Positions 1 through 33,621 of a stretch of 47,124 nt of DNA are shown piece after piece (position 1 is the first letter of the stretch; the number at the start of each line of letters is the position of its first letter). The position numbers and the translations under genes were made by a program. The notes under the pieces are model-generated. The model saw only the letters and a program-made list of their open reading frames with translations, was not told the origin of the DNA and searched no databases. This stretch comes from a virus. Lineage: Duplodnaviria > Heunggongvirae > Uroviricota > Caudoviricetes. The stretch lies in the IMG/VR virus record IMGVR_UViG_2939521961_000002. One strand, 5' to 3'.

Positions 1-1164
1 TTACGCCTTCTTTATATCCTCCATAATTCCAGAGTGGGACATATTTGGGACATTATCACCAAAAATGTCGTCTATTTTCCTCGCATGCTCTGTCAAATGA
101 TTAGGCGCAAGGTGAGCATACCTACGAACCATTTCTATGGACTCCCATCCGCCCATTTCCTGAAGCACTGATAATGGGACGCCTGACTGAATCAGCCAGC
201 TTGCCCAGGTGTGTCTGAGGTCATGGAAACGGAAATCTTCAATTCCTGCACGACGACAAGCTGATAGCCATGATGTCTTGCTGTCGATGCGCATCTTCCT
301 GACCGCAGGCGTTGATGTTCCATCTGCTCGCTTAGCCGCCTTGGTATGTACAAACACCCATTTGTGATGCTTGCCTATTTGATCACGCAACACTTTACAG
401 GCGGTATCGTTCAGCGCCACACCAATGGCGCGGTTTGATTTGCTCTCTTCTGGATTCACCCAGGCAACTCGTCGCTGCATGTCGATTTGTTGCCATTCCA
501 GATTTATGATGTTCGACTTTCTCAGACCAGTTGCCAGCGCAAACTTGACGACAGATTTCAGTGGTTCGGGGCACTCATCAATAAGGCGTTTTGCTTCCTC
601 CTTTTCCAGCCATCTGACTCGCTTGTTTCTGACCGCTGGTATCTTGATGACAGGCGCTTTTTCCAGCCACTTCCAGTCGCGTTCTGCAGCACGGAGAATG
701 GCCTTTATCATGGCAAGATGCTTTGCCTTTGTCTGAGTTGATACTGGCTTTGGTTCATAAACAGGCGGTTCTTTACCTTTCCTGATGGCGGCCTGAACTT
801 TCTGTTTCCATATTTCTTTCGTCTTTCTGTTATGCATTCTGCTTACAGCAGAGTAAATCTTTGCCTCCGAGATATCTTTAAGCCTTATACCCTCAAAATG
901 TTCAAGCCAGAACTCAATCCGGCTTTTATCTGAATCGAGAGATTTTTTATCAGCTTTTTCCTCAAGCCATCTTAGGCAGGCCTCTTCAAAAGTGACATCA
1001 GGTAAATCCCCTAGCTTTTCTACTCGCCAGAGTTCTGCTTTTCGCTTGTCGTGCAACTCCTGAGCTTGCCGCTTGTCCTTTGTGCCAAGAGATTCCTTAA
1101 TTCGTTTCCCGCCCGGGAGCGAATACGAGGCATACCATATTTCATTTCTGCGGAAGAGTGACAT
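1..1164 (-). CDS. int: Tyrosine integrase (DLP12 IntD-like phage integrase)
   Basis: 387-aa ORF; C-terminal catalytic region ([22 protein letters not shown]) typical of tyrosine recombinases; sits at prophage edge next to xis; stop codon at window position 1-3. Confidence 0.9.
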
Positions 1165-3321: not shown

Positions 3322-3842
3322 GCTGCCACCTTCTGCTCAGTGGCTTTCTGTTTCAGGAATCCAAGAGCTTTCACTGCTTCGGCCTGTGTCAGTTCTGACG
3401 ATGCGCGAATGTCGCGGCGAAATATCTGGGAACAGAGCGGCAATAAGTCGTCATCCCATGTTTTATCCAGGGCGATCAGCAGAGTGTTAATCTCCTGCAT
3501 GGTTTCATCGTTAACCGGAGTGATGTCGCGTTCTGGCTGACGTTCTGCAGTGTATGCAGTATTTTCGACAATGCGCTCGGCTTCATCCTTGTCATAGATA
3601 CCAGCAAATCCGAAGGCCAGACGGGCACACTGAATCATGGCTTTATGCCGTAACATCCGTTTGGGATGCGACTGCCACGGCCCCGTGATTTCTCTGCCTT
3701 CGCGGGTTTTGAATGGTTCGCGGCGGCATTCATCCATCCATTCGGTAACGCAGATCGGATGATTACGGTCCTTGCGGTAAATCCGGCATGAACCGCCCCG
3801 GAAATCCTGGAGACTAAACTCCCTGAGAAAGAGGTAAACAGG

Positions 3843-4169
3843 ATGACTAAAAATACTCGTTTTTCCCCCGAAGTCCGTCAGCGGGCGATTCGTATGGTTC
3901 TGGAAAGTCAGGATGAATATGACTCACAGTGGGCGGCAATTTGTTCCATTGCCCCAAAGATTGGCTGTACGCCGGAGACTCTGCGTGTCTGGGTTCGCCA
4001 GCATGAGCGGGATACCGGGGGCGGTGATGGTGGGCTCACCAGTGCTGAACGTCAGCGTCTGAAAGAGCTGGAACGTGAAAATCGTGAACTGCGCCGCAGT
4101 AACGATATCCTTCGCCAGGCTTCCGCTTATTTTGCGAAGGCGGAGTTCGACCGCCTCTGGAAAAAATGA
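3843..4169 (+). CDS. IS3-family transposase OrfA (HTH)
   Basis: 108 aa [30 protein letters not shown]...; leucine-zipper-like C-terminus; overlaps orfB by 4 nt at an A-rich site typical of -1 frameshifting. Confidence 0.85.
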
Positions 4170-5056
4170 TGCCACTGCTGGATAAGCTGCGTGAGCAGTA
4201 CGGGGTCGGACCGGTATGCAGCGAACTGCATATTGCCCCGTCAACGTATTACCATTGTCAGCAACAGCGACATCATCCGGATAAACGCAGTGCCCGTGCG
4301 CAGCACGATGACTGGCTGAAGAAAGAGATACAGCGCGTATACGATGAAAATCACCAGGTATACGGTGTGCGTAAAGTCTGGCGTCAGTTGTTACGGGAAG
4401 GTATCAGAGTGGCCAGATGCACTGTGGCACGTCTCATGGCAGTTATGGGACTTGCCGGTGTTCTCCGGGGTAAAAAGGTCCGCACTACCGTCAGCCGGAA
4501 AGCCGTTGCCGCATGCGACCGCGTAAACCGTCAGTTCGTGGCAGAACGTCCAGACCAGTTGTGGGTGGCTGATTTTACCTGGGTAAGCACATGGCAGGGC
4601 TTCGTTTATGTGGCGTTCATCATTGATGTGTTCGCCGGATACATCGTGGGATGGCAGGTCTCATCATCCATGGAAACAACATTCGTGCTGGATGCACTGG
4701 AGCAGGCGTTGTGGGCCCGTCGGCCGTCCGGCACAATCCATCACAGTGATAAAGGTTCTCAGTATGTATCGCTGGCCTACACGCAGCGGCTTAAGGAAGC
4801 CGGATTACTGGCATCAACAGGGAGTACTGGCGACTCGTATGACAACGCGATGGCTGAGAGCATCAATGGTCTTTACAAAGCGGAGGTAATACACCGTAAT
4901 AGCTGGAAAAACCGGACAGAAGTGGAACTGGCCACACTAACGTGGGTGGACTGGTATAACAATCGACGATTGCTGGAAAGGCTGGGCCATATTCCTCCGG
5001 CAGAAGCAGAAAAAGCTTATTATGCTTCCATCGGAAATAATGATCTGGCAGCCTGA
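4166..5056 (+). CDS. IS3-family transposase OrfB (DDE integrase core)
   Basis: 296 aa with DDE-type catalytic core (…WVADFT…HSDKGSQY…YDNAMAES…). Confidence 0.85.
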
Positions 5057-5421
5057 GTTCACAGATAAAATACTCTCCAGGAAACCCGGGGCGGTTCAGC
5101 ATGTACAGGATTCATTGTCCTGCTCAAAGTCCATGCCATCAAACTGCTGGTTTTCATTGATGATGCGGGACCAGCCATCAACGCCCACCACCGGAACAAT
5201 GCCGTTCTGCTTATCAGGGAAGGCGTAAATTTCTTTCGTCCACGGATTAAGGCCGTACTGGTTGGCGACGATCAACAATGCGATGAACTGCGCATCGCTG
5301 GCATCACCTTTAAATGCCGTCTGGCGAAGAGTGGTGATCAGTTCCTGTGGGTCGACAGAATCCATGCCGACACGTTCAGCCAGCTTCCCTGCCAGCGTTG
5401 CGAGTGCTGTACTCATCCGTT

Positions 5422-5718
5422 TTATACCTCTGAATCAATATCAACCTGGTGGTGAGCAATGGTTTCAACCATGTACCGGATGTGTTCTGCCATGCGCTCC
5501 TGAAACTCAACATCGTCATCAAACGCACGGGTAATGGCTTTTTTGCTGGCCCCGTGGCGTTGCAAATGATCGATGCATAGCGATTCAAACAGGTGCTGGG
5601 GCAGGCCTTTTTCCATGTCGTCTGCCAGTTCTGCCTCTTTCTCTTCACGGGCGATCTGCTGGTAGTGACGCGCCCAGCTCTGAGCCTCAAGACGATCCTG
5701 AATGTAATAAGCGTTCAT
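5422..5718 (-). CDS. gam: Gam (RecBCD inhibitor), short form
   Basis: 98 aa matches lambda GamS ([21 protein letters not shown]...[10 protein letters not shown]); the upstream in-frame region is diverged from lambda and closed by a stop at 5794..5796. Confidence 0.9.
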
Positions 5719-5793
5719 GGCTGAACTCCTGAAAATGGCTGTGAAAAAATCGCCCGCGGAATGCCAGGCTGATTCGGAAAACAGGAAAGGGGA

Positions 5794-6084
5794 TTAGTGA
5801 TTCAGAGCGTTGCCGCGTCCGTCGAGAAAAACTTCCACGAGCAAGTCACGGGTATAAGTGCGCTCAATGCCGCGATGCAGATAAAGTCGTCCGCGTAAAT
5901 TAGCTGATGCAGTCCAGGTACCATCTTTGCGTTTGACCAGCATTCCTGGCATGACTGCACCGCGATTAACGGTCTGCGTTCCGTAATGTTGATGAACCAT
6001 AAAAACTCCTGCCCGTAAGCTGGGCTGCTGAACATATAAAGACTTCTGCGCGTATTCAGGCGGTGGATGGCCGCCGGTTGTCAT
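5794..6084 (-). CDS. Hypothetical protein, first ORF downstream of putative pL (kil/cIII position)
   Basis: 96-aa ORF in frame with gam but separated by TAA; no family recognised; see finding on the in-frame Arg-rich upstream ORF. Confidence 0.35.
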   Translation of the reverse strand: MTTGGHPPPEYAQKSLYVQQPSLRAGVFMVHQHYGTQTVNRGAVMPGMLVKRKDGTWTASANLRGRLYLHRGIERTYTRDLLVEVFLDGRGNALNH

Positions 6085-7270: not shown

Positions 7271-7351
7271 TTTTGCCTTTCCCGTAATGTTATTTTTTAT
7301 AAGGTATTTTCTTCAGCGTATTACCCAAAAGCCTCATCAACACGCGGCTGA

Positions 7352-8041
7352 TTATCCGTGTTTTCTGTACGTCTGCGGCATGCTCCCAATAACCTTACCG
7401 AATATGAATACCCGGTTCATCTCGTCTTTCTCGATAGGGTCCCACGGTGAGTAGCTCTTGTTATCAGAGATAACCAGCAGTTTATCCTTCATCATTTGCA
7501 GGCGCTTTACATGGGCGGTGTCGTCGTACAGAAATGCATAGATACCATCACCGTCGAAAGATTTAACCGTGATATCAACGAACAGCAGATCACCTGGTTC
7601 GATCGTTCCTGACATGCTGTCACCACGCACGTTAATGATGCGGATATTTTCTGCCTTCCTACCATCGAACATGTGACGAGCATCGTCAAACGAGTACTCA
7701 ACCGAGCGTAGAACTTCTACAAACTCACGGTTGATGACTCCCGGCCCAGCACTGACTTCTATATCAAGAACGTCAATCTTGAAGTATTTGGAATGGCTGA
7801 CAGTTGATTGTATTGGTTGCACTGTACTGTCTGACATATTTCCAACGCCAGAAGATAACCATTCTGCGCGCACACCCAAAGCGTTCGCGATCTCCACGAT
7901 TTTAGTTGTTTGATTAGCTTTCCCTGTTTCGATTTTCTGAATAGCAGCCTGGCTAACCCCGACCAAATCCCCAAGCGCCTTTTGTGTAAGGCCTCGCGCT
8001 AATCTGGCTTCTTTAAGTCTTTCTGAGAGTGTTGTTTTCAT
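7352..8041 (-). CDS. cI: cI-type repressor (N-terminal HTH, C-terminal LexA/S24-like self-cleavage domain)
   Basis: 229 aa from internal ATG (MKTTLSERLKEARLARGLTQKALGDLVGVSQAAIQKIETGK...); C-terminal ...NVRGDSMSGT...HVKRL... Ser/Lys dyad-like motifs; start lies at a leaderless-type PRM as in lambda. Confidence 0.85.
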   Translation of the reverse strand: MKTTLSERLKEARLARGLTQKALGDLVGVSQAAIQKIETGKANQTTKIVEIANALGVRAEWLSSGVGNMSDSTVQPIQSTVSHSKYFKIDVLDIEVSAGPGVINREFVEVLRSVEYSFDDARHMFDGRKAENIRIINVRGDSMSGTIEPGDLLFVDITVKSFDGDGIYAFLYDDTAHVKRLQMMKDKLLVISDNKSYSPWDPIEKDEMNRVFIFGKVIGSMPQTYRKHG

Positions 8042-8120
8042 AGTCCAAATGTACAACCAAGGTTTTATTCCATCAAACGAAAATGGTTGTTGACTAAAAA
8101 CAACCATAGTTTTAATCTTG
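8042..8120. promoter_or_regulatory. Immunity operator/promoter region (OR, PRM, PR)
   Basis: Palindromic operator ATGGTTGTT-N7-AACAACCAT (8083..8107); PR -35 TTGACT (8089..8094) with downstream -10-like TTAATC/TAATCT; PRM on the minus strand TTGATG (plus 8071..8076) - 17 nt - TACATT (plus 8048..8053) placing the start at the cI ATG. Confidence 0.55.
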
Positions 8121-11759: not shown

Positions 11760-11819
11760 CTGTGCGTTGCCGCAAAATCGGCACACGGGATTGGCGTCCC
11801 GGACATCAAAACGACGCAT

Positions 11820-11840
11820 AACCGCGTTCGCGGTTTTTTT
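11820..11840 (+). terminator. Hairpin plus T7 run in the leader (possible attenuator)
   Basis: AACCGC-GTTC-GCGGTT followed by TTTTTTT, about 55 nt downstream of the putative promoter and upstream of the Bro-N start. Confidence 0.35.
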
Positions 11841-12003
11841 ATGCGCAGTGCACGTCTACACAAAAATTATGGTGGGCTGTGTGAGGGCTTCTTCGGAAGC
11901 GCCGGATTTCGTTTTGACCGGTTACGCCAACCTTGCACAGTCCACCACCAGTCGATTGGCGTCGTCGGTGGTGATAGCTCAAATTCAAAACGAGATTATC
12001 GCT

Positions 12004-19498: not shown

Positions 19499-20389
19499 TC
19501 AGGCTGCCAGATCATCGTTTCCGATGGAAGCATAATAAGCTTTTTCTGCTTCTGCCGGAGGAGTATGGCCCAGCCTTCCCAGCAATCGTCGATTGTTATA
19601 CCAGTCCACCCACGTTAGTGTGGCCAGTTCCACTTCTGCACGGTTTTTCCAGCTCTTACGGTGTATTACCTCCGCTTTGTAAAGACCATTGATGCTCTCA
19701 GCCATCGCGTTGTCATACGAGTCGCCTGTACTCCCTGTTGATGCCAGTAATCCGGCTTCTTTTAGTCGCTCCGTATAGGCCAGTGACACATACTGAGAGC
19801 CTTTATCGCTGTAATGGATGGTGCCAGACGGACGACGGGCCCACAACGCCTGCTCCAGCGCATCCAGCACGAATGTCGTTTCCATAGACGATGAGACCCG
19901 CCCCCCCACGATGTATCCGGCAAACACATCAATGATAAACGCCACATAGACGAAGCCCTGCCATGTGCTGACGTAAGTAAAATCAGCCACCCACAGCTGG
20001 TCAGGACGTTCTGCCACGAACTGACGGTTTACGCGGTCACCTGTGGCAACGGTTTTCCGGCTGACGGTAGTGCGGACCTTTTTACCCCGGAGAACACCGG
20101 CAAGTCCCATAACCGCCATGAGGCGCGCCACTGTACATCTGGCCACCCTGATTCCTTCCCGTAACAACTGACGCCAGACTTTACGCACACCGTACACCTG
20201 ATGATTTTCATCGTATACGCGCTGTATCTCTCTCTTCAGCCAGTCATCGTGCTGCGCACGGGCACTGCGTTTATCCGGATGATGTCGCTGTTGCTGACAA
20301 TGGTAATACGTTGACGGGGCAATATGCAGTTCGCTGCATACCGGTCCGACCCCGTACTGCTCACGCAGCTTATCCAGCAGTGGCATCAT
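19499..20389 (-). CDS. IS3-family transposase OrfB, copy 2
   Basis: 296 aa; near-identical to 4166..5056 product with several substitutions. Confidence 0.85.
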
Positions 20390-20712
20390 TTTTTCCAGAG
20401 GCGGTCGAACTCCGCCTTCGCAAAATAAGCGGAAGCCTGGCGAAGGATATCGTTACTGCGGCGCAGTTCACGATTTTCACGTTCCAGCTCTTTCAGACGC
20501 TGACGTTCAGCGCTGGTGAGCCCACCATCACCGCCCCCGGTATCCCGCTCATGCTGGCGAACCCAGACACGCAGGGTCTCCGGCGTACAGCCAATCTTTG
20601 GGGCAATGGAACAAATTGCCGCCCACTGTGAGTCATATTCATCCTGACTTTCCAGAACCATACGAATCGCCCGCTGACGGACTTCGGGGGAAAAACGAGT
20701 ATTTTTAGTCAT
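20386..20712 (-). CDS. IS3-family transposase OrfA, copy 2
   Basis: 108 aa identical in length to 3843..4169 product. Confidence 0.85.
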
Positions 20713-32880: not shown

Positions 32881-33621
32881 ATGCCTGTACCAAATCCTGT
32901 AATGCCGGTGAAAGGTGCCGGGACCACCCTGTGGGTTTATAAGGGGAGCGGTGACCCTTATGCGAATCCGCTTTCAGACGTTGACTGGTCGCGTCTGGCA
33001 AAAGTTAAAGACCTGACGCCCGGCGAACTGACCGCTGAGTCCTATGACGACAGCTATCTCGATGATGAAGATGCGGACTGGACTGCGACCGGGCAGGGGC
33101 AGAAATCAGCCGGAGATACCAGCTTCACGCTGGCGTGGATGCCCGGAGAGCAGGGGCAGCAGGCGCTGCTGGCGTGGTTTAATGAAGGTGATACCCGTGC
33201 CTATAAAATCCGCTTCCCGAACGGCACGGTCGATGTGTTCCGTGGCTGGGTCAGCAGTATCGGTAAAGCGGTGACGGCGAAGGAAGTGATCACCCGCACG
33301 GTGAAGGTCACCAATGTGGGACGCCCGTCGATGGCAGAAGATCGCAGCACGGTCACAGCGGCAACCGGCATGACCGTGACGCCTGCCAGCACCTCGGTGG
33401 TGAAAGGGCAGAGCACCACGCTGACCGTGGCATTCCAGCCGGAAGGCGCAACCGACAAGAGCTTCCGTGCGGTGTCTGCGGATAAAACAAAAGCCACCGT
33501 GTCGGTCAGTGGTATGACCATCACCGTGAAAGGTGTTGCTGCAGGCAAGGTCAACATTCCGGTCGTATCCGGTAATGGTGAACTTGCTGCGGTTGCAGAA
33601 ATCACTGTCACCGACAGTTAA
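32881..33621 (+). CDS. V: Major tail protein V
   Basis: 246 aa [31 protein letters not shown]... matches lambda gpV including the C-terminal Ig-like domain. Confidence 0.95.

Follow-up and report, generated by a model that had tools for sequence, protein, structure and literature searches.

Two forms of Gam have been described in phage lambda: according to Wilkinson et al., GamL and GamS are two isoforms, GamS corresponding to residues 41–138 (PMC5218532). The DNA analysed here raises the question of what the nucleotides immediately upstream from a very similar gam gene represent, and whether a longer Gam could ever be read from them. The window, that is, the whole stretch of 47,124 nt of IMG/VR virus record IMGVR_UViG_2939521961_000002, had originally been read as having a mosaic breakpoint at the gam 5′ end (5719..5796), where a diverged counterpart of the lambda long-form extension was closed by a TAA. 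In our analysis 5719..5796, on the minus strand, is very probably an ordinary non-coding kil-gam spacer plus the stop of kil, located in the early operon that a lambdoid prophage transcribes leftward.

The window opens with an integrase gene (1..1164, minus strand), after which the order is exo, bet, gam, a KilR-like kil, two ORFs of unknown function and a CI-like repressor (7352..8107). An IS3-family element of 1,310 bp (3789..5098) splits bet after nucleotide 318; it carries orfA (3843..4169), orfB (4166..5056), an ALIL frameshift pseudoknot detected by Rfam (4124..4240) and terminal repeats TGAACCGCCCCGG, with a 3-bp GCA target duplication, and similar elements are annotated as IS1203-like in the closest E. 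coli genomes. Since bet is split, the Red recombination system of this prophage is probably inactive, with gam and exo intact. A second ALIL pseudoknot with the same score of 121.5 bits (Rfam; 20315..20431, minus strand) indicates that the prophage holds another copy of this IS family. Rfam also reported isrK (11768..11840) next to C4 antisense RNA (11865..11952) and, towards the right end of the window, IS009 RNA (46883..47081).

The features considered in the following are:

5422..5718, minus strand: gam, putative 98-aa RecBCD inhibitor (GamS form), stop codon included; from the ORF list, translation, Pfam and PDB
5719..5793, minus strand: non-coding kil-gam spacer, 75 nt (74 nt in lambda); from alignments and translation
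5726..5730, minus strand: Shine-Dalgarno sequence AGGAG, 7 nt before the gam ATG; read from the sequence
5732..5735, minus strand: run of four Ts (T4; three in lambda, T3), sole gap in the alignment of the window with lambda, placed at 5735
5742..5775, minus strand: terminator-like hairpin, with core 5769..5752, stem extension to 5775 and tail GATTTTTTCA at 5751..5742
5794..5796, minus strand: TAA stop of kil, here in the gam frame; end of the ORF 5794..6084, aligned with the lambda kil TAA
5794..6000, minus strand: Rac KilR-like kil, 68 aa from ATG 6000, with AGGAG upstream; from PHROG 294 and NCBIfam
5797..5801, no strand: mosaic junction, with the end of the lambda/933W similarity at 5800; from megablast and local alignments

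The kil-gam spacer and its reading frame

In a continuous translation of 6084→5422, gam starts at ATG 5718..5716, stops at 5424..5422 and has 98 codons. Its product covers positions 1–98 of the 98 of the Pfam Gam profile PF06064 (E 3.4e-65; 216.8 bits against a cutoff of 25) and aligns end-to-end with the 98-residue Gam chains of PDB entries 5MBV (chain A) and 2UUZ (E about 2.5e-61), from which it has few differences, all conservative. At the nucleotide level, 2 of the 297 nt of the coding region (5655 and 5538) differ from lambda in the local alignment. RecBCD inhibition is documented for lambda GamS (PMC5218532), and the Gam of the window is, from sequence identity, a putative RecBCD inhibitor too. 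The Shine-Dalgarno sequence AGGAG is invariant in a four-way alignment of the window, lambda, 933W and 4A7, and a site of CAGGAG/TAGGAG type is retained in most Gam loci of 70–76% identity. Because of this sequence and of the lambda precedent, we infer that Gam is translated only from ATG 5718, by means of the AGGAG 7 nt upstream.

Exactly 26 codons upstream from this ATG, and in frame with it, lies TAA 5796..5794. The 25 codons in between (5793..5719) are all sense codons in the gam frame, and a search among them for ATG, GTG and TTG found none; no longer Gam can therefore start in this stretch, and the original prediction was right that only the 98-aa form is possible. It was also right about the relationship with the lambda extension region, which the nucleotide alignment confirms, the similarity being much greater than chance would give: from 5800 to 5099 the window is collinear with lambda, with 97.6% identity and a single 1-nt gap. 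Precisely, the 82 nt of 5719..5800 align without interruption, with six substitutions (5793, 5775, 5766, 5759, 5748 and 5737) and one extra T, and the identity of the spacer (5719..5793) to lambda and 933W is 91–94%. The extra T falls 15–19 nt upstream from the gam ATG, where the window reads ATTTTC and lambda ATTTC. The description of this region as diverged applies to the conceptual peptide and not to the DNA. In fact, the peptide upstream from FRSSAM looks diverged because the extra T shifts the frame by one base, and the likeness at FRSSAM consists of five codons downstream from the indel, read in the same frame in both phages.

The TAA, in turn, had been taken as a product of divergence; it is the kil stop, found at the homologous position in lambda, where kil (33187..33330) terminates at the TAA aligned with window 5796..5794. 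As the spacer with T4 has 75 nt, kil and gam share a frame in the window and the kil TAA is in the gam frame; as 74 nt is not a multiple of three, the lambda kil stop is out of it. The one base more than in lambda puts the kil TAA in the gam frame, with a second TAA too in most relatives; in lambda, the shorter spacer lets a frame from an ATG inside the lambda-type kil enter gam, and this is the 138-codon GamL ORF.

The region could alternatively derive from a breakpoint inside the gam 5′ extension that replaced functional long-form coding sequence, in which case the lack of a long Gam would be a derived loss. Relative to lambda, the spacer has diverged about ten times as much as gam (6/82 nt vs 2/297 nt), which speaks for such a loss, and a very short patch of separate ancestry might lie within the spacer. 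However, the homology with lambda and 933W is continuous through 5719..5800, one extra T accounts for the peptide difference, and lambda has the same TAA as its kil stop. We consider a derived loss quite improbable, also in the light of the frequencies reported below, and we retain the ordinary spacer as the preferred explanation.

Most relatives have two in-frame stops upstream from gam. The second, in 933W and 4A7, is a TAA 18 codons upstream from gam; the window lacks it because T→G at 5775 makes it GAA. The substitutions at 5775, 5759 and 5748 are private to a minor haplotype, and the exact spacer haplotype of the window, bearing all three, occurs in 7 of the 120 IMG/VR contigs among the matches listed.

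The missing second stop would suit a readthrough of the kil stop codon giving a programmed KilR-spacer-Gam fusion of about 192 aa, as would the kil stop changed to TAC, with an uninterrupted kil-gam ORF, in a contig of the same spacer haplotype (IMGVR_UViG_2713896771_000008). This single fused contig may, however, be the result of a mutation or an error, and most relatives carry both in-frame stops. Moreover, the kil stop of the window is a TAA with a T after it, the context in which E. coli terminates translation most efficiently, and no stimulating element is evident. A programmed fusion is, in our judgement, extremely unlikely. As to the contig itself, at about 4847..4879 it has GAA for the backup TAA and the tail GATTTTTT, with a KilR-spacer-Gam ORF of ~192 codons, which could be a real fusion, a pseudogene-like mutation or an error.

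The upstream kil gene and the mosaic junction

The mechanical ORF of kil runs on to 6084 (5794..6084 in the ORF list); the gene was considered from ATG 6000, and the same gene is annotated as a 68-aa Kil in phage 4A7. Its 68-aa product belongs to PHROG 294, "Kil protein for bacterial septation inhibition" (E 3.2e-36). It also aligns over the whole length of the Rac KilR model, NCBIfam PRK11354 "FtsZ inhibitor protein" (E 3e-16), with a score of 59.2 bits; as this is below the cutoff of 92, we considered the Kil of the window as a KilR relative and not as an equivalog. A Pfam search with the 68-aa product returned no match, including none to Lambda_Kil PF06301, to which lambda Kil itself scores 72.3 bits. 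The Rac and lambda kil genes are unrelated in sequence according to Haeusser et al. (PMC3961180), and the block of FtsZ ring formation is known for Rac Kil only (PMC3961180).

A 901-nt query that takes in the KilR-like gene was compared by megablast with GenBank phages. Fifteen records match most of it; in Stx-type phages, 933W among them, the match is confined to the part from query position 451, corresponding to window 5800, into bet. Position 5800 is also where the local alignments with lambda and with 933W start, and across the junction the two kil types have only TCACTAA in common, which comprises the last His codon and the stop. These alignments place the mosaic junction at 5800/5801, at the 3′ end of kil, where a lambda-type kil is replaced by a Rac KilR-like one. 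The exchange is a clean module swap at a gene boundary, as is typical of lambdoid phages. A breakpoint thus exists close to where one had been predicted, but outside 5719..5796, since the homology is unbroken up to 5800/5801; by the same alignments it lies at, or just outside, the upstream edge of that interval and not within the gam leader.

This position gives the derived loss some of its support, as the junction lies no more than 5 nt from the interval on its upstream side and the exchange of kil took away the ATG of the lambda long frame. The removal of this ATG is a second, independent reason for the absence of a long form, and contigs with a KilR-like kil and T3 are also devoid of the long ORF (IMG/VR, among the matches listed). 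We considered two descriptions of a GamL-type locus. The first is an open frame from an ATG 40 codons upstream from the GamS ATG, and in the window an in-frame TAA is found 26 codons upstream. The second is the combination of T3 with a lambda-type kil bearing an ATG, and the window has T4 and a KilR-like kil. The window is without both requirements of GamL, the T3 allele and the ATG-bearing kil.

Frequency of the two arrangements and the form of Gam

IMG/VR was scanned with one pattern accepting either T-run length, which matched at least 120 contigs. Among the 120 contigs listed, 86 have T4 and 34 have T3, distributed by type of kil as follows (IMG/VR, among the 120 matches listed):

KilR-like kil with T4: 53 contigs
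lambda-type kil with T4: 31 contigs
lambda-type kil with T3: 32 contigs, 31 of them with the 138-codon ORF
KilR-like kil with T3: 2 contigs
kil unclassified by the script (3′ end KilR-like) with T4: 2 contigs

The 138-codon ORF thus occurs only with a lambda-type kil and T3 (31/120 contigs among the matches listed), and from its pattern across these classes it follows that it needs both. About 11 of the listed contigs with a lambda-type kil and T4 carry ATTCACTACCCCCC, in which the kil TAA is changed to TAC; their Kil would gain a few residues and end at the second TAA, which acts there as a backup stop.

For GenBank phages we used T-run queries of 43/44 nt, designed so that each 28-mer spans the T run. 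T4 was found in 90 phage records and T3 in 90, the latter including lambda, VT2-Sakai, HK630 and SfI. A search of 5,426 complete E. coli genomes gave 2,900 loci with T4, spread over 2,590 genomes, and 972 with T3, spread over 900. The majority of E. coli prophage gam loci, about three quarters, have the closed T4 arrangement. The closed frame had been regarded as a special loss; it is instead the prevailing state in E. coli and among the IMG/VR matches listed, and is present in 933W and 4A7.

The same counts bear on whether the extra T might be a homopolymer error of sequencing or assembly in a truly lambda-like sequence. The difference does lie in a run of Ts, where indel errors usually arise, but T4 recurs at those 2,900 E. 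coli loci, in the 90 phage records (933W included) and in 86/120 IMG/VR contigs among the matches listed, and in the four-way alignment it is linked to a neighbouring C/T substitution. Furthermore, even with T3 there would be no long form, the KilR-like kil having no suitable ATG. An error of this kind is barely conceivable.

Distant homologs were sought in one genome per species. Most matches of the genome scan were lambda DNA that most likely contaminates unrelated assemblies, and only the matches of 70–83% identity were considered informative. Gam homologs of 70–76% identity were found in two Citrobacter genomes, Klebsiella grimontii, Raoultella lignicola, an Escherichia sp., a Pseudescherichia MAG and an Enterobacteriaceae genome. 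All seven have exactly 98 codons, the homologous ATG and a Shine-Dalgarno-like site before it; an in-frame ATG upstream from gam was found in none of the seven, in which the open stretch upstream is 1 to 38 codons long. The Pfam and PHROG Gam profiles are likewise 98 positions long and cover lambda GamL only over residues 41–138, and the solved structures 5MBV and 2UUZ are both of the 98-aa form. Within lambda, the GamS ATG has AGGAG at 7-nt spacing, and directly before the GamL ATG stands TTATAAAAA, in which nothing resembling a Shine-Dalgarno sequence can be read.

Homologs, profiles, structures and the Shine-Dalgarno contrast, taken together, indicate that the 98-residue Gam is the conserved unit and that the long frame, which is polymorphic and restricted to a lineage, is a by-product or, at most, an accessory form. 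As the closed state is that of the majority and every diverged homolog has 98 aa, the long ORF, and not its absence, is the restricted state, against what a derived loss would require. The complete absence of the long ORF in the outgroup genera points to T4 as the ancestral allele. When expressed from plasmids, GamL and GamS are both active, and GamS is active in vivo (PMC5218532); if GamL is a real isoform in lambda, its extension may have a function that is absent from the window.

Some further observations concern gam annotation and occurrence. The 1981 lambda record V00638.1 annotates both the 138- and the 98-codon frames, and labels the latter (314..610) "reading frame kil", a historical mislabel. 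The "GamL" of a 2025 Genome Research paper is a different protein, of phage phi80; this is a collision of names and was set aside as evidence on lambda. In E. coli ECMA0423 and Shigella flexneri SFBU1023, a gam homolog of 83% identity (locus about 1501) has CAG in place of the ATG start and only a GTG 8 codons upstream, overlapping a AGGAAGGAG site; from its sequence it would be either a degraded copy or a gene with a shifted start. Lambda gam with the exact lambda spacer was also found on low-coverage contigs in the assemblies of unrelated organisms, such as Shewanella canadensis, Pseudomonas spp., Neobacillus and Kitasatospora, three of these contigs being about 48.4–48.5 kb long, as is the lambda genome; contamination with lambda DNA is the most likely explanation.

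The spacer hairpin and comparison with known phages

The consensus terminator scan found in the spacer a stem-loop GCCTG-GCATTCCG-CGGGC (5769..5752) followed by GATTTTTTCA, that is, a G+C-rich hairpin directly before a U tract, as expected of a Rho-independent terminator. The core stem has 5 base pairs. Folded alone, the hairpin has an energy of -10.8 kcal/mol (z -2.0), the lambda equivalent having -11.7 kcal/mol (z -2.7), and the private substitutions 5775 T→G and 5748 A→T give a longer predicted stem and extend the T run to six. RNAalifold on ten aligned spacers, six from diverged genera, placed a hairpin at the same position, and in a count of pairs 90% of the cells were paired and compensatory changes were seen in 3 pairs; the covariation score was 0.311 vs 0.16 in shuffles (reached in 2/500) and ≤0.156 for slid registers. 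As the set comprises ten sequences, of which four are closely related, and non-coding DNA aligns with uncertainty, these values are only suggestive of conservation. The fold of the whole spacer was no better than that of shuffled sequences (z -0.6 for the window and -1.1 for lambda), and we consequently dropped a spacer-wide structure pairing UUCCUG with the Shine-Dalgarno sequence. Rfam reported nothing at the gathering threshold over the spacer region.

In lambda, weak terminators that make up the tL2 cluster lie between ral and bet, and the spacer hairpin may be one of them. A full-text literature search on this cluster found nothing relevant, and the lambda records J02459, NC_001416 and V00638 contain CDS features only, with no terminator features. 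The hairpin is a weak candidate for a terminator. The diverged homologs do not retain its U tract; termination may therefore be a function in the lambda group only, or the hairpin may have some other purpose. In the mechanism that we propose, transcripts from the early leftward promoter would read through this putative terminator under antitermination.

A more far-reaching proposal is that the hairpin is a conserved cis-acting RNA controlling gam across enterobacterial prophages and that the T3/T4 alleles toggle a real, lineage-restricted GamL. We regard this as unlikely; if true, the hairpin could act, for example, in processing, in stability or in coupling to the termination of kil translation.

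For the ordinary kil-gam spacer that we prefer, the arrangement is already known, as identical ones are on record with their annotation for 933W, 4A7 and thousands of E. coli prophages. The region is a standard lambdoid early-left region and has little meaning for new biology. What it makes clear is that the 138-codon gam frame of lambda hinges on a 1-nt allele of the spacer plus a lambda-type kil. About three quarters of natural gam loci, and every diverged homolog examined, lack the GamL frame, which supports the 98-residue Gam as the conserved functional unit and argues against calling a 98-aa gam truncated.

Among known phages, the kil-gam junction of lambda (33110..33189) has a collinear spacer and the same kil stop, hairpin, Shine-Dalgarno sequence and ATG as the window; it differs in its spacer of 74 nt (T3) against 75 nt (T4), in six spacer substitutions and in the family of kil. 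The Stx phage 933W (AF125520; kil 7668..7937, gam 7296..7592) shares with the window T4, the 75-nt spacer and the in-frame kil stop, with a gam annotated as 98 aa and 98.4% identity over window 5099..5800; unlike the window, it has a lambda-type kil and cIII upstream, and a second in-frame TAA where the window reads GAA. Phages 4A7, PhiR68_2, PhiR70_1 and IdasGreatGrand have the KilR-like kil, spacer and gam of the window over the full 901 nt, with 96–99.7% identity, but their bet is intact, whereas that of the window is split by the IS. Finally, the Rac KilR model aligns in full length with the Kil of the window, whose gene occupies the kil slot upstream from the recombination genes, but the NCBIfam score of 59 against a cutoff of 92 bits sets the window Kil apart from Rac KilR.
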